50,212 nucleotides of DNA, taken from NCBI RefSeq assembly GCF_003334315.1, contig NZ_QOWR01000032.1. The stretch is one strand, 5' to 3'. Positions 1,692-43,312 of the stretch are shown piece after piece. Position numbers and translations under genes: made by a program. The stretch is from Escherichia coli (GTDB lineage Bacteria; Pseudomonadota; Gammaproteobacteria; Enterobacterales; Enterobacteriaceae). The notes beneath the pieces were generated by a model. That model was given only the letters and a program-made list of their open reading frames with translations. It ran no database searches and was not told where the DNA came from. How positions within the stretch are numbered: the first letter of the stretch is position 1; each line of letters begins with the position of its first letter.

Positions 1692-1768
1692 TGGTGCGTC
1701 CGAGTGGACTCGAACCACCGACCCCCACCATGTCAAGGTGGTGCTCTAACCAACTGAGCTACGGACGC
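1692..1768 (-). tRNA. tRNA-Val (anticodon GAC), 77 nt, distal copy of tandem pair
   Basis: Reverse complement reads GCGTCCGTAGCTCAGTTGGTTAGAGCACCACCTTGACATGGTGGGGGTCGGTGGTTCGAGTCCACTCGGACGCACCA: cloverleaf with GAC in the anticodon loop and 3' CCA. Corresponds to the valV/valW pair of K-12. Confidence 0.9.
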
Positions 1769-1772
1769 AGGA

Positions 1773-1849
1773 TGGTGCGTTCAATTGGACTCGAACCAAC
1801 GACCCCCACCATGTCAAGGTGGTGCTCTAACCAACTGAGCTATGAACGC
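1773..1849 (-). tRNA. tRNA-Val (anticodon GAC), 77 nt, proximal copy of tandem pair
   Basis: Reverse complement reads GCGTTCATAGCTCAGTTGGTTAGAGCACCACCTTGACATGGTGGGGGTCGTTGGTTCGAGTCCAATTGAACGCACCA; differs from the other copy only by compensatory changes in acceptor and T stems. Confidence 0.9.
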
Positions 1850-10440: not shown

Positions 10441-10484
10441 TCCATTTCACTCCAGACCCTAACTTCAGCTCCTGCAAAATCGCA

Positions 10485-10500
10485 AGGTAAACGTTTGCCT
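10485..10500. promoter_or_regulatory. PurR operator (pur box) in the purR 5' leader
   Basis: AGGTAAACGTTTGCCT, about 45 bp upstream of the purR start codon; second copy of the AAACGTTTGC core. Confidence 0.6.
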
Positions 10501-10738
10501 TTACACACCTTACGCACAACAAAAGTGTTGCGGTACGCCGGAAAAACGACACGGAGCGTCAGGAAGGGGTCAATGGCCAGTACGCAAATAGTGTAAGCGT
10601 GGAATTTTGGCCGATCTTGACGAAAAGGGGAAGTGGTAAAAACACTTATCATTATAAATGACGGGAGATTTTTTCATCACAGTGTGTAAAAATGCGTAAT
10701 ATCACTTTTTGTGTGGTAATAAAAAAGGAGAAAACTTG

Positions 10739-10828
10739 ATGAGCACCGACCTTAAATTTTCACTGGTAACAACGATTATCGTCCTCGGTTTGATCGTAGC
10801 CGTGGGTTTGACTGCCGCGCTGCACTGA
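10739..10828 (+). CDS. ynhF: YnhF small membrane protein (29 aa)
   Basis: ATG at 10739 preceded by AAGGAG RBS; translation MSTDLKFSLVTTIIVLGLIVAVGLTAALH (single TM helix); matches my memory of K-12 YnhF. Absent from the ORF track because it is below the length cutoff. Confidence 0.65.
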   Translation: MSTDLKFSLVTTIIVLGLIVAVGLTAALH

Positions 10829-10993
10829 TTTCCTCTCGAGGGAGCGCGTTCTCCCTCGCATCTCCTTCCTGTTTGTTAGCAAAATGGCAAAAGTGTTTTC
10901 TCTTTTTGTTATTTTCATTTTTTTGTGATTGCTGTCATGCTTTCGCCACTTTAATGAATATCGCGTAATGACGCGAAGAGGTGGAGATAAGGC

Positions 10994-23621: not shown

Positions 23622-23701
23622 GCACTTTTAGGAATAGCCGCCGTTCAAAAATGTGTCACTGGTTTACACTTATTCAGGAATGCACAATGAACGGAGGTCC
23701 T

Positions 23702-24223
23702 ATGAAACGTTTTAGTCTGGCTATTCTGGCGCTGGTTGTTGCAACCGGCGCACAAGCTGCCAGTGAAAAAGTCGAGATGAACCTCGTCACGTCGCAAGGG
23801 GTAGGGCAGTCAATTGGTAGCGTCACCATTACTGAAACCGATAAAGGTCTGGAGTTTTCGCCCGATCTGAAAGCATTACCCCCCAGTGAACATGGCTTCC
23901 ATATTCATGCCAAAGGAAGCTGCCAGCCAGCCACCAAAGATGGCAAAGCCAGCGCCGCGGAATCCGCAGGCGGGCATCTTGATCCACAAAATACCGGTAA
24001 ACATGAAGGGCCAGAAGGTGCCGGGCATTTAGGCGATCTGCCTGCACTGGTCGTCAATAATGACGGCAAAGCTACCGATGCCGTCATCGCGCCTCGTCTG
24101 AAATCACTGGATGAAATCAAAGACAAAGCGCTGATGGTCCACGTTGGCGGCGATAATATGTCCGATCAACCTAAACCGCTGGGCGGTGGCGGTGAACGCT
24201 ATGCCTGTGGTGTAATTAAGTAA
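23702..24223 (+). CDS. sodC: Periplasmic Cu/Zn superoxide dismutase (173 aa)
   Basis: Start chosen at MKRFSLAILALVVATGAQAASEK (signal peptide) within ORF 23651..24223; Cu/Zn-SOD motifs (GFHIHAKGSC, HVGGDNMSDQPKPLGGGGERYACGVI). Confidence 0.9.
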   Translation: MKRFSLAILALVVATGAQAASEKVEMNLVTSQGVGQSIGSVTITETDKGLEFSPDLKALPPSEHGFHIHAKGSCQPATKDGKASAAESAGGHLDPQNTGKHEGPEGAGHLGDLPALVVNNDGKATDAVIAPRLKSLDEIKDKALMVHVGGDNMSDQPKPLGGGGERYACGVIK

Positions 24224-26236
24224 TTAAGAGGCCAGCGTACCTTGCGGTGGTGCTTGCTCAAGTTGCGAAAGCGAGCAGTACAGCCGCCAGACAATTGCCG
24301 CCAGCTCACGGGCGGCAGGTTGATGATGACGGGCAAGGCTGTCGCAAATCCGCTGTAATTCTTCAAGTGTGGCCGCCAGTGATTTTTGCTGAACGCCACG
24401 CTCACTCATCACTCCCCGCAACAGTGAAATACAGTTATCCCGTACTCGCGATAACGGATCGGAACGCGATTCCCAGTCGCGCAATTGCCAGACAACATGA
24501 GAACAGTTCAGCAGCACTACACCCCAGCGTAATAACCAACGGCGAGCCAGCGCATCCTGGCTGTTACTCAACTGACTGACGTGATGATAAGTGAGCGATT
24601 CAAATTCGCTTTCACTCAGTGTTGGATGGCGGCTTAGCTGATCGACAAAATCCCGGCGCAGCGCGCGAATATGGCGGCGGCTTTTACGAGCATCCGATCC
24701 TGGACGCAGAATGGCGAACGCTAACCACGCCAACGCGACGCCAACGATTTTTGCCAGATTATCGTTAAGAAAATCAGCAAAATCATACACCGGGGGATTA
24801 GTGACAGCGATAAAAGAACCCATAAAAACAATCAGTTGCCCCCACAATGCGGCAAATTTTGGCATCTGCAATTTAAGAAGCTGCATTGTCGCCAGCAGTG
24901 GAAAGAGAAACAGTAAAAATTGCCACAGATCGCTAATCTGGACCATCAGACCAAATTTGACCACAAAGCTGAATAGCGAAAGTAACACCAGCGTGCGCAT
25001 CAGAAGTGACAACGACTTAAACGGTGCTGCGACGGCGGAGTAGAGTACGCAGCTAATTGCTGCCAGCGTTAATGCATTGGCACCGGCATCCCATTGCGAA
25101 GCAATACTCCATGCGCCAATCATCATCAACGTACAAAATGTACGCAGCCCGCTCCACATAGCTTCGGCGTTATCGGTTTGACGAGCCAGGCCGGATGTCC
25201 GTGGGAGTCTGGTATGATCATCTACACCGCTTTGCAGACGATGTAATTCCTGACTACTTTGCAGATAAAGGCGGCAAAAATAACGTAGTCGCTGCCAGAA
25301 GGCGACGTGCCGATAGTCGGCGACGTTGGTCGGGCGTAGCGGGGCGATAATACGTGCGACGGTGTAAACATCTGTTTGCGAACTGGCGAGCGCCGTCAGC
25401 AACTGTTCGAGAATTTCTCGTGTGGCACCTGGCGGTGAGGGCCAGTTGAGCAACATACGTCGCAGGCTGGAGATGACACTGGTCATACGTAATTGCTGGT
25501 GGAGCAGCGCATTAAGGCGCGCGTTTTGCTGGCGAAAACGATAGTGGCTCCAGAAAGCCTGGATACGCAGCAAATTCATGGTCAGTATCTGCCCAATCAC
25601 CCCTTCATGTGCTGCACGAATGGCATCGGTTGTTTCAGGCTGCCAGAGTAAACTGGCATGTTCCAGTAATCGGGCGTGCATGTTTTTCAATGCGGTTAAA
25701 AGGGCAGTAGCATCGGAACTGCTCGGCAGGATCATCATCATCATGCCGCCGCACAAAATACCGACTATTACCTCGCAAACGCGCGCCTGAGCGATATCCC
25801 ACAGCTGGCTGGCCTCAGTAATATTAACCATCGGAAAGGCGATGATGGCAGCCGTGTAGCCCGCCAGTTGAAATGCATACGCGACGTTATTCGTGAAGTG
25901 CGCACAGGCCCAGGTACAAAAGCCAAGCCACGCCGACATGCTCAATAGAAAAAACCACGGCTCATTGAGCGTATGCCCGGCAAGAAGCAGTGCCGCAATG
26001 GCTCCGAGCAAACTGCCAGCGATGCGTCCGAGGCTTTTGCTGATAACACCGCCAACGGTGGGAAAGCTAACCACTGCAGCCGAGGTCATCGCCCAATAGG
26101 GTTCATCCAGATTTAAATAATAGGCAACCGTCAGCGCCAGACACATGGCAATGGTATTGCGTAACGCATAACGCCATTGCGCCAGCGTGGCCCTGAACCA
26201 GGGCAAATTGCGCAAGGACCATGACGATGCGTTCAT
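24224..26236 (-). CDS. ydhK: YdhK, AaeB/fusaric-acid-resistance-family inner-membrane efflux protein (670 aa)
   Basis: ORF 670 aa; two hydrophobic multi-TM blocks separated by a soluble region; start overlaps ydhJ stop at 26236. Confidence 0.85.
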
Positions 26237-27093
26237 TATTGACCTACGGCAATGCTACAGGTGGTGCCCGACACCAACGTGACATCGCCTGGGACTTTAT
26301 CCAGCGCAAAGCGGACGGGAACGCGTTGGGCGAGTCGAACCCAGGGGACGTTAGGTTTAACATCCGGAATAAGGCTTGAGTCACTTTCAACGCTCTGATC
26401 ATAAATCGCCCGACCGATACTGGAAACGTGACCCTGTAACGTTTTGTTATCACTATAGAGGGTAATTTGTGCTGGTGCACCTTCGCGGATATGGCGCAAC
26501 TTGGTTTCTTCAAAATAACCAATGACGTAAAACGAGTGGCTGTCGACAAGGGCAAACAGCGGTTTCCCGGTATCAGCGTAATCGCCGATGCGGGTAGTAA
26601 GGTTAGTCACCCATCCACTCACCGGGGCGCGAATTTCCGTTTGCGCCAGTTGCCATTGTGCCTGTTTCAGCGTCGCCTGTGCGGCATCAACACTGGCCTG
26701 CATCGCTTTAACATTGAGGTTAGCGGTATCGAGTTCTTCGGCAGAAATAAAATTTTGTGAGAGATGACGACGACGATTCGCTTCGTTATTGGCTTTTGCG
26801 AGGTCAGATTGCGCTTTCGCCAGCTGAGCCTGTGCGTTCAGCTCGGCGATCTGAAAGGGCGTTTTATCGATCGTGAGCAGAAGATCCCCCGCGTTAACCA
26901 GCTGGTTGTCTTTTATATTCAGCTCAACAATACGTCCCGACACCTGTGGGGTGATAGAAACCTGTTCTGCGCGTATTTTCCCGTCGCGTGTCCACGGAGA
27001 TTGCATGTAATAATTCCACAGCCACCATCCGGCAAGAACCGCAACTACCGCTACAATGATTGTTGAGAAATACTTAATTGTTTTAATTGACAT
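26236..27093 (-). CDS. ydhJ: YdhJ, HlyD/AaeA-family membrane-fusion protein (285 aa)
   Basis: Start chosen at [24 protein letters not shown] (ATG at 27091..27093, immediately after the ydhI stop); coiled-coil middle region typical of periplasmic adaptor proteins. Confidence 0.85.
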
Positions 27094-27095
27094 AG

Positions 27096-27332
27096 TTACC
27101 ACGCAATCAGTATTGCCAGAGCAAGGCAAACGCAAATCGCAAACAGCGATAAATCCATTAACAAGGGATGCCAGATGTCACCGGCGTAGATCCAGCCACG
27201 AAGCAGGCGGTGTACGACAAGCCAGATGACGAATCCAAACGCGAATGCTTTGAAAAACGGAGGAAAGTAGACGGACGCACCGAACACCAGATCTTGTAAG
27301 GGCAATCCTGTTGCATTGAGCATAAACTTCAC
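27096..27332 (-). CDS. ydhI: YdhI (DUF1656 small membrane protein, AaeX-like), 78 aa
   Basis: ORF 78 aa [40 protein letters not shown]...; first gene of the ydhIJK operon. Confidence 0.85.
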
Positions 27333-27504
27333 AAAGTAGATTCCTTTACGACCGAATATATTGCGTTAGATTAATAAATATTCTTTAAGTGCGAAAAATT
27401 TACGCGCAATTTCTGAAAAATATGTCTGACGGTAACCAAATGCAGCAATACATTTGTTTTAGCAATACAATTGCTGCACACTATTCTAAAAGCCGCATAA
27501 TATC

Positions 27505-27516
27505 TTAGCAAGCTAA
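27505..27516. promoter_or_regulatory. SlyA recognition palindrome in the slyA / ydhIJK divergent intergenic region
   Basis: TTAGCAAGCTAA, a perfect palindrome matching the reported SlyA consensus, about 15 bp upstream of the slyA start. Confidence 0.6.
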
Positions 27517-27526
27517 TTATAAGGAG

Positions 27527-27967
27527 ATGAAATTGGAATCGCCACTAGGTTCTGATCTGGCACGGTTGGTGCGCATATGGCGTGCTCTGATAGACCATCG
27601 CCTGAAACCGCTGGAGTTAACACAAACCCATTGGGTTACGTTACACAATATCCATCAGTTACCTCCAGACCAGTCGCAAATTCAACTGGCAAAAGCGATT
27701 GGCATCGAGCAGCCATCACTGGTCCGTACTCTGGACCAACTGGAAGAAAAAGGGTTAATTTCGCGTCAAACTTGTGCCAGCGATCGTCGGGCTAAACGTA
27801 TTAAACTGACGGAAAAGGCAGAGCCGCTGATCAGCGAAATGGAAGCTGTTATTAACAAAACCCGCGCGGAAATATTACATGGCATCTCCGCAGAGGAACT
27901 GGAGCAACTGATTACGCTCATCGCAAAACTTGAGCATAATATCATTGAGTTACAGGCCAAAGGGTGA
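27527..27967 (+). CDS. slyA: SlyA, MarR-family transcriptional regulator
   Basis: [45 protein letters not shown]...; the annotated K-12 start may be the TTG two codons later (27533), giving 144 aa. Confidence 0.92.
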
Positions 27968-28013
27968 AATGAAGGGGGCGTGTGGTCAGTAACCTGACCA
28001 CACGCAAACTTAT

Positions 28014-43096: not shown

Positions 43097-43312
43097 TTAT
43101 TGGACATAGTGCCAGACGGACTTCGGTACCTGGCCGAGGTCAAACAAACGTCCGCCAGAAACCAGCTCTGCGCGACGGTGATCGGCAGCACGATACATAT
43201 TGATCAGTTCCTGATCGTCCGTCAGGGTGTAATTAAGATGGTCGTAGAGTTTTTCCAGACTTTCGAGTGAACTGATTTTGCGAAATTTTAATAAGTAGTC
43301 CTGAACAGTCAT
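43097..43312 (-). CDS. cnu: Cnu (YdgT), Hha-family oriC-binding nucleoid-associated protein (71 aa)
   Basis: ORF 71 aa [71 protein letters not shown]. Confidence 0.9.

Follow-up and report, generated by a model that had tools for sequence, protein, structure and literature searches.

The slyA-ydhIJK locus of Escherichia coli: an AaeXAB-like efflux operon divergent from slyA, with a conserved SlyA site in the shared intergenic region

Positions 24224..27967 of the window (the whole stretch of 50,212 nucleotides that was analyzed, E. coli contig NZ_QOWR01000032.1) are the known slyA-ydhIJK locus of E. coli K-12, 100% identical to MG1655 and found in every one of the 5426 complete E. coli genomes, and the preliminary description of this stretch was correct and ordinary. 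At a probability of roughly 90%, the locus as a whole is best explained as a coupled operon for FusC/AaeAB-type efflux of aromatic carboxylates, with a SlyA operator in the intergenic region that it shares with slyA and with a σE input in E. coli. The locus has been described by Will et al. 2019 (PMC6401476), Curran et al. 2017 (PMC5797941) and Will et al. 2025 (PMC12506092), and in comparison with the published E. coli and Salmonella locus we found no structural difference: the sequence is that of MG1655, the 12-mer discussed below and a second TTAN6TAA site are as printed, and the divergent layout is shared. The genes, the binding site, the binding of SlyA, the repression in relatives and the fusaric-acid phenotype are all already in print. 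Since most of the checks proposed in the preliminary description have likewise been published, ydhIJK and its SlyA control are not a new lead, and the observation adds little as a finding. What the locus offers is a view of SlyA itself, which is central to the counter-silencing of virulence genes and acts as a sensor of small aromatic compounds, in that the cargo of the neighboring pump could reveal the signal that SlyA perceives in vivo.

The three pump genes lie on the minus strand, and open reading frames, RefSeq annotation (which also agrees on slyA) and domain matches concur on the identities first proposed for them. ydhK (24224..26236) encodes a 670-aa FUSC-family inner-membrane transporter whose Pfam match to PF04632 (FUSC) covers residues 20-661 (E 3.9e-139), as befits a full-length FUSC protein; ydhJ (26236..27093) encodes a 285-aa HlyD-family membrane-fusion protein, or periplasmic adaptor, with one N-terminal transmembrane helix; and ydhI (27096..27332) starts with GTG and encodes a 78-aa small membrane protein with two hydrophobic segments and a DUF1656 match (E 1.8e-14). 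We propose that YdhK acts as the inner-membrane FUSC transporter, with YdhJ as a short periplasmic adaptor and YdhI as a small DUF1656 membrane protein. The coupling of the three genes asserted in the preliminary description is evident at their junctions, where ydhI and ydhJ are separated by a 2-nt gap (TAA-CT-ATG) and the stop codon of ydhJ overlaps the start codon of ydhK by 1 nt (TAATG), and it is conserved in ~77 other species, whose junctions are mostly gaps of 1-4 nt or overlaps of 1 or 4 nt. The divergent orientation relative to slyA also holds across Enterobacteriaceae, in 78 of 80 species. No outer-membrane factor gene is present at the ydhIJK locus, and the convergent sodC stands directly after ydhK. 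The arrangement would suit a tightly coupled operon for FusC/AaeAB-type efflux of aromatic carboxylates.

BLASTP identities of 33%, 41% and 24% to AaeX, AaeA and AaeB support, at the level of sequence, the earlier suggestion that ydhIJK is an AaeXAB-like efflux module. Because all three proteins score under the NCBIfam equivalog cut-offs (YdhI against AaeX, 21.4 vs 82; YdhJ against AaeA, 243.4 vs 400; YdhK against AaeB, 119.9 vs 870), we take them to be paralogues of AaeXAB, not orthologues. AaeXAB, the E. coli p-hydroxybenzoate exporter, shares with ydhIJK the gene order of DUF1656 protein, short membrane-fusion protein and FUSC transporter, and each operon has a divergent regulator gene: that of ydhIJK encodes the MarR-family SlyA, and that of aaeXAB, which lies at a locus of its own, encodes AaeR, an activator of the LysR type. 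The combination of an FUSC inner-membrane protein with a membrane-fusion protein is common to ydhIJK, Burkholderia FusC/FusD/FusE-Bucl8, Stenotrophomonas FuaABC and E. coli MdtNOP, and a small DUF protein is found in both ydhIJK and the Burkholderia FusC-type operon. The FusC-type operons, however, encode their own outer-membrane channel (FusA/Bucl8, FuaC or MdtP), whereas ydhIJK does not; YdhJ is missing ~58 residues of the coiled-coil hairpin of MdtN, and YtcA, the small protein of mdtNOP, has no similarity to YdhI. Fusaric-acid resistance has been reported for FusC-type pumps (PMC7682875) and likewise for Salmonella YdhIJK, in which ydhIJK mutants showed delayed growth on 30 µg/ml fusaric acid and slyA mutants grew better (PMC6401476). 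This phenotype belongs to Salmonella, not to E. coli, and is a growth delay only.

On the plus strand, slyA (27533..27967) encodes a MarR-family regulator of 144 aa, read as in RefSeq from the TTG at 27533 and not from the ATG at 27527; the Shine-Dalgarno sequence AAGGAG (27521..27526) directly adjoins that ATG and stands 6 nt ahead of the TTG, which is retained in 79 of 80 species. The protein scores 277 bits against NF002926 (cut-off 120), and PDB entries 3q5f, 3qpt, 3deu and 4aih provide structures of SlyA and RovA. The salicylate-pocket residues named in PMC6401476 (R14, W16, R17, T32, W34, H38 and T66) are all present in the window translation, numbered from the TTG start. As with MarR and marAB or EmrR/MprA and emrAB, the gene for a ligand-sensitive winged-helix dimer here adjoins a pump operon, and SlyA, like MarR and EmrR/MprA, recognizes a pseudo-palindrome within the control region, from which aromatic carboxylates such as salicylate release it (PMC6401476). 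Unlike the classical MarR-family repressors, SlyA now has its main role in H-NS counter-silencing at many horizontally acquired genes (PMC6401476), and unlike the classical MarR-pump pairs, this one has repeatedly lost its pump in lineages beyond the core enterics, with slyA and the operator retained (PMC6401476 and the loci compared here).

The slyA-ydhI intergenic region (27333..27532) is 200 bp long with 31.5% GC, against 51% in the window. By per-column conservation across 80 Enterobacteriaceae species, its slyA-proximal block of 93 bp (27440..27532) shows almost no variation; the slyA Shine-Dalgarno sequence is found here together with the SlyA site and promoter-like hexamers, and the near-invariance is consistent with the text on Fig. 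6C of PMC6401476. The ydhI-proximal half (27333..27439) is variable between genera. Within the conserved block, the high-affinity SlyA operator TTAGCAAGCTAA (27505..27516) matches the SlyA consensus at 12 of 12 positions and is the PslyA site listed in Table 3 of PMC5797941. The preliminary description had placed a perfect palindrome here, correctly as to position and incorrectly as to perfection: the reverse complement, TTAGCTTGCTAA, differs at two positions, self-complementarity holds for only 10 of the 12 bases, and the element is a pseudo-palindrome whose symmetric 5+5 arms (TTAGC/GCTAA) flank a non-symmetric AA center. The footprints behind the SlyA consensus reportedly come from the Salmonella slyA promoter. 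Because that consensus derives partly from footprints, in addition to SELEX (PMC5797941), the 12/12 match does not constitute independent evidence, whereas conservation across species does: 78 of 80 Enterobacteriaceae species carry the exact 12-mer, each of the remaining two has one mismatch, and the distance from its end to the slyA start, 16 nt in E. coli, is 16 nt in 77 species and 15 nt in one. In electrophoretic mobility shift assays E. coli SlyA shifted a 200-bp slyA-ydhI fragment with an apparent Kd of ~50-100 nM (PMC5797941), and this binding, with the naming of the 12-mer in Table 3 of the same paper, supports the proposal of SlyA control at this locus.

Between the 12-mer and the ydhI start are 172 bp, and the 12-mer is exact both in a species that has lost ydhIJK and at a locus where ydhIJK survives as a remnant. 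Because it ends 16 nt ahead of the slyA TTG in a near-invariant block and is exact even without ydhIJK, we conclude that it is a SlyA site that travels with slyA and not with the pump, and that it is primarily slyA's own operator. A candidate slyA -10 hexamer, CATAAT (27496..27501, plus strand; TATAAT in Salmonella and Klebsiella), read from the sequence, would have slyA transcription begin within the SlyA site. The 12-mer would then sit between the likely -10 hexamer and the ribosome-binding site of slyA, a placement that would make slyA autoregulation its first job. The E. coli slyA transcription start was reportedly mapped by Corbett et al. in 2007. All placements of E. coli slyA and ydhI promoters given here are predictions.

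Control of ydhIJK by SlyA is supported by published work, and the sign of this control differs between E. coli and Salmonella/Klebsiella. In vitro, Salmonella SlyA repressed ydhI ~19-fold and salicylate relieved the repression (PMC6401476), and RNA-seq indicated that ydhIJK is repressed by SlyA in vivo in Salmonella (PMC12506092); in Klebsiella lacking KvrA, the SlyA orthologue, proteomics recorded YdhJ up 45- to >100-fold (bioRxiv 10.1101/845925). In E. coli K-12, by contrast, overproduction of SlyA raised ydhIJK 2.2-fold and did not repress it (PMC5797941), a change in the opposite direction to the Salmonella and Klebsiella results. We envisage that SlyA, as a ligand-sensitive MarR-family dimer, binds the shared AT-rich intergenic region and that, from the 12-mer or from weaker nearby sites, it may also set ydhIJK transcription; in Salmonella and Klebsiella this takes the form of repression relieved by salicylate-like aromatic carboxylates, and in E. 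coli K-12, on overproduction, of a mild net increase.

Which site controls E. coli ydhI we can only infer. One operator region is often common to both members of divergent MarR-regulator/pump pairs, and by analogy the 12-mer could serve ydhIJK as well as slyA, a SlyA dimer blocking the leftward ydhI -35 and the slyA +1 together; such back-to-back overlapping promoters are the model that the preliminary description implied. A σ70-like promoter toward ydhI predicted by consensus scan (27483..27511, minus strand, 17-nt spacer) overlaps the 12-mer as this model needs, with its -35 TTGCTA (27511..27506) inside the SlyA site, and both this hexamer and the -10 TAGAAT (27488..27483) are invariant across 80 species. 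The scan, however, returned three sites against 6.0 expected from shuffled sequence and, being below the shuffled expectation, carries little weight on its own; the predicted promoter would also give ydhI a ~144-nt leader, and the 12-mer is still exact where only a remnant of the pump, or none of it, is left, which speaks against a shared role. In Salmonella, moreover, the salicylate-sensitive footprint near the ydhI -35 covers a site with only a 75% consensus match and not the 100% site (PMC6401476), and in two Salmonella subspecies the sole sequence that fits the SlyA consensus at 9 of 12 positions is found ~104 bp upstream of slyA. A single operator common to both transcription units is thus conceivable, and we consider it doubtful.

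The preferred reading, a coupled efflux operon with a SlyA operator and an E. coli σE input, draws on a second promoter-like element. ydhIJK has been reported to be σE-dependent (PMC2685091, PMC7075262), and a motif scan and alignment located GCACTT-N16-TCTAA at 27366..27392 (minus strand; predicted start near 27359), which we tentatively assign as the ydhI σE promoter and which would add envelope-stress control in E. coli. Three σE-like motifs occur in the window against ~1 expected. The -35 element is E. coli-specific in the alignment, and the same motif scan found none in the loci of 79 other species, so the motif is not a conserved feature. Its -10 is overlapped by TTAGATTAATAA (27366..27377), a second TTAN6TAA-type candidate SlyA site (PMC5797941 Table 3), which lies 34 bp upstream of the ydhI GTG and is restricted to Escherichia.

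The specificity of the σE-like -35 element to E. coli also fits a different account of the E. coli promoter, in which SlyA relieves H-NS silencing of the intergenic region and its net effect is therefore activation; the repressed promoter known from Salmonella would have decayed and the σE promoter would have taken over. ydhIJK rose 2.2-fold on SlyA overproduction and is flagged as H-NS-associated in Table 2 of PMC5797941, the GC content of the intergenic region is low, its ydhI-proximal half differs between genera, and E. coli carries ACGGTAACCAAA (6/12) at the position of Salmonella TTGGTAAGCAAA (9/12), all in keeping with such a switch. The rise, however, was small and was seen in one overexpression experiment, E. 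coli ydhIJK is cited in the Klebsiella preprint as a direct target of SlyA repression (10.1101/845925), and on σE induction initiation at PydhIJK changed weakly although the RNA increased 20-fold (PMC7075262). We therefore hold counter-silencing at E. coli ydhI to be a tentative and somewhat unlikely explanation.

For the transport mode of YdhK, the preferred efflux-operon reading can be set beside a structural one. The AlphaFold2 model of YdhK (pLDDT 94.1) is built from two repeats of six transmembrane helices and a helical cytosolic domain; six transmembrane helices and the helical cytosolic domain superpose on an ALMT protomer, and as modeled YdhK resembles the plant ALMT anion channels. 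Our comparison set comprised plant AtALMT1, AtALMT9 and GmALMT12 and the mycobacterial FUSC-domain channel Rv2571c, and a sequence search of the PDB returned no solved FUSC-family transporter structure. An internal duplication in YdhK is suggested by the model, by the matches of its halves to ALMT and by alignment of the YdhK N-terminal half to the C-terminal half of MdtO; BLASTP of half against half was not significant (E 0.19). Across 84 FUSC proteins, R71 in the third helix is at least 90% conserved and R152 in the sixth helix is invariant; going by helix order, they may correspond to the pore arginines of ALMT TM3 and TM6. YdhK as a single chain mimics the ALMT homodimer; unlike ALMT, its C-terminal repeat is without the conserved arginines and it partners with a periplasmic adaptor. 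On this basis YdhK might be a single-chain pseudo-dimer of ALMT fold with pore arginines in the N-terminal repeat only, through which cytoplasmic aromatic carboxylate anions would exit down the membrane potential, YdhK then not being a proton antiporter and YdhJ and YdhI serving as periplasmic and membrane accessories. The natural cargo would be an endogenous SlyA ligand, and YdhK and SlyA would form a pump-regulator feedback loop, partly rewired to σE in E. coli, that tunes SlyA activity through that ligand. We regard this composite proposal as speculative and improbable.

Far less probable still is that the 12-mer is a functionless AT-rich near-palindrome in an AT-rich spacer: although TTAN6TAA-type sequences, whose core it contains, occur 18 times in the window and consensus matches with at most two mismatches appear at the chance rate (4 observed, 3.95 expected), TTAGCAAGCTAA itself is present as a single exact copy where ~0.006 would be expected by chance, and its conservation in sequence and offset, together with the binding of SlyA to the slyA-ydhI fragment (PMC5797941), rules out a chance origin.

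Three smaller features of the region may be recorded. A candidate secondary SlyA site, TTAGCAATACAA (27459..27470, plus strand), is a sequence match only, at 9 of 12 consensus positions, and falls inside a direct repeat of 13 nt with copies at 27444-56 and 27461-73. A 9-bp inverted repeat, TGCAGCAAT/ATTGCTGCA (27441-49 and 27470-78), considered as an RNA hairpin or an additional operator, was discarded on finding that it is not conserved in Salmonella and Citrobacter. Rfam and tRNA scans of 24224..27967 returned no features, and just past this stretch a hairpin with a 12-bp stem (27978..28005), located between the convergent slyA and slyB, resembles a bidirectional terminator.

The 3744-bp stretch that carries ydhK (24224..26236, minus strand, 670 aa), ydhJ (26236..27093, minus strand, 285 aa), ydhI (27096..27332, minus strand, GTG start, 78 aa) and, across a 200-bp spacer, slyA (27533..27967, plus strand, TTG start, 144 aa) matches E. 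coli K-12 MG1655 at 100% identity and occurs, always at no less than 95% identity, in every complete E. coli genome (5426 of 5426). Relative to NC_000913.3 the window is in reverse-complement orientation, and an NC coordinate is obtained as 1,748,357 minus the window position. The positions claimed for the genes and for the 12-mer TTAGCAAGCTAA in the preliminary description were borne out by the ORF list, the RefSeq annotation of the identical MG1655 stretch and an exact-match scan. The ydhI/ydhJ junction reads TAA-CT-ATG and the ydhJ/ydhK junction TAATG, and across ~77 species the junctions are mostly gaps of 1-4 nt or overlaps of 1 or 4 nt; because they are tight both here and in those species, the proposed coupling of ydhIJK is sound at the sequence level. 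The longest slyA ORF opens with an ATG at 27527, adjoining a Shine-Dalgarno AAGGAG (27521..27526); the annotated start, a TTG 6 nt downstream, is shared by 79 of 80 species.

The 12-mer occupies 27505..27516 and is the sole exact copy within the window, where ~0.006 copies are expected by chance. It had been called a perfect palindrome, which it is not: its reverse complement differs at the two central bases. A match to the SlyA consensus is circular on its own, because that consensus was derived partly from footprinting, reportedly of the Salmonella slyA promoter, and limited SELEX. The 12-mer is the published consensus, and Curran et al. list exactly TTAGCAAGCTAA as the E. coli PslyA site together with a second site, TTAGATTAATAA (27366..27377), and report a gel shift with SlyA for the 200-bp slyA-ydhI fragment (PMC5797941).

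Independent evidence for the 12-mer came from 80 Enterobacteriaceae loci collected via SlyA. The 12-mer is exact in 78 of the 80 species, with one mismatch in the remaining two, and its end lies 16 nt before the slyA start codon in 77 of those 78 (15 nt in the other). The surrounding 93-bp block (27440..27532) hardly varies across the 80 species, whereas the half of the spacer nearer ydhI differs between them, in agreement with the description of Will et al. (PMC6401476). The site is also exact in Intestinirhabdus alba, where ydhIJK is absent from the vicinity, and in Kosakonia oryziphila, where only ydhIJK remnants persist, which argues that it is first of all slyA's own site. Its position just downstream of the likely slyA -10 hexamer, which reads CATAAT in E. 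coli but TATAAT in both Salmonella and Klebsiella, fits slyA autoregulation. In these two loci (L038 and L064) slyA and its operator are intact, and ydhK is apparently truncated in three others (L022, L071 and L078; 491, 479 and 236 codons), where sequencing errors are possible; this pattern of truncation and operon loss fits published accounts of recurrent pump loss.

The block is near-invariant even though the SlyA proteins of the 80 species differ by up to 15%, and its invariant base strings point to dense regulatory information beyond one SlyA site, with added input possibly from PhoP, as reported for Salmonella. Inside the block lie a 13-nt direct repeat, AGCAATACA(T/A)TTG, at 27444 and 27461, and a perfect 9-bp inverted repeat, TGCAGCAAT/ATTGCTGCA, at 27441..27478 with arms 20 nt apart; the latter, sought in Salmonella and Citrobacter, is not kept there.

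The suggested control of ydhIJK by SlyA finds support in published data. In Salmonella in vitro transcription, SlyA represses ydhI ~19-fold and slyA ~5.3-fold, falling to 3.2-fold and 2.8-fold, respectively, with 2 mM salicylate (PMC6401476), and RNA-seq confirmed repression of ydhIJK in vivo (PMC12506092); in Klebsiella, loss of the SlyA orthologue KvrA raises YdhJ 45- to >100-fold (10.1101/845925). In E. coli K-12 the sign is opposite, SlyA overproduction raising ydhIJK 2.2-fold (PMC5797941). Will et al. place a salicylate-sensitive site, just 75% identical to the consensus, near the ydhI -35 (PMC6401476). The sole 9/12 consensus match in two Salmonella subspecies is TTGGTAAGCAAA, ~104 bp upstream of slyA, and its E. 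coli counterpart, ACGGTAACCAAA, matches at 6/12. A consensus scan, not enriched relative to shuffled sequence, predicts a ydhI-facing promoter with its -35 inside the 12-mer and an invariant -10. Except for the word 'perfect', the preliminary description was right in what it observed, and its interpretation is supported; the slyA-ydhIJK locus, the SlyA site, SlyA binding and most of the experiments that it proposed are in print already.

The operon is also a reported member of the σE regulon, with its RNA rising ~20-fold on rpoE induction (PMC2685091, PMC7075262). A candidate σE promoter motif, GCACTT-N16-TCTAA, lies on the ydhI strand at 27392..27366 and overlaps the second TTAN6TAA site, TTAGATTAATAA; in alignment with other species its -35 was found in E. 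coli only. The window holds three σE-like motifs (G-N-ACTT, 15-17 nt, TC[TA][AG]A) against about one expected, the other two candidates being at 23622..23649 and 43118..43144, one of them just upstream of sodC.

With its NCBIfam equivalog model SlyA scores 277 bits, above the cut-off of 120. YdhI is a DUF1656 protein (E 1.8e-14), YdhJ an HlyD-type adaptor and YdhK a full-length FUSC protein (PF04632, E 3.9e-139), and YdhIJK is of the wider FusC-type pump kind, which combines a FUSC protein, an adaptor and a small DUF protein. The noted resemblance to AaeXAB holds, with identities of 33%, 41% and 24% to AaeX, AaeA and AaeB, respectively; because all three proteins score well below the AaeXAB equivalog cut-offs, they are paralogues. 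The regulators differ, being MarR-type SlyA at ydhIJK and LysR-type AaeR at aaeXAB. A Salmonella ydhIJK mutant shows a growth delay on fusaric acid (PMC6401476). The Burkholderia, Stenotrophomonas and E. coli MdtNOP versions of the FusC-type pump include a dedicated outer-membrane channel (PMC7682875), whereas ydhIJK has no such gene, since ydhK ends directly against convergent sodC. YdhJ is, like AaeA, an unusually short adaptor and lacks ~58 residues of the coiled-coil hairpin that MdtN has; it may be unable to reach TolC or any outer-membrane channel.

A sequence search of the PDB detected no solved FUSC structure. The AlphaFold2 model of YdhK is confident (pLDDT 94.1, pTM 0.91) and predicts a helical cytosolic domain together with a membrane part made of two repeats, each of six transmembrane helices. 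Among PDB structures, Foldseek finds full and convincing matches to it only in plant ALMT anion channels (probability 1.0), and since every match spans half of YdhK, the modelled protein resembles an ALMT homodimer fused into one chain; that FUSC and ALMT proteins are related was known before. R71 and R152, conserved basic residues in helices three and six of the N-terminal repeat (R152 being invariant in an alignment of 84 FUSC family members), would correspond, by helix order only, to the pore arginines that ALMTs and the mycobacterial FUSC-domain channel Rv2571c carry in their own third and sixth helices (10.64898/2026.03.10.710584). The 84 proteins are unevenly conserved: almost all of their invariant or near-invariant residues (W103, Y120, R152, G159, K67, R71 and others) fall in the N-terminal repeat, suggesting that the two pseudo-dimer halves are probably not functionally equivalent.

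At the sodC/ydhK junction the stop codons touch (TAA at 24221..24223, plus strand; 24224..24226, minus strand), with 0 nt between the convergent genes and no space for an intergenic terminator; the junction sequence TTAAGTAATTAA (24216..24227) also fits TTAN6TAA. Between convergent slyA and slyB, a strong hairpin at 27978..28005 (12-bp stem, 8 GC pairs) is likely a shared bidirectional terminator. Elsewhere in the window, an Rfam match to the enterobacterial sRNA family STnc550 lies at 10441..10831 on the plus strand (396 bits), and two tandem tRNA-Val(GAC) genes occupy 1692..1849 on the minus strand, with an 'HPnc0260' match antisense to the tRNAs.
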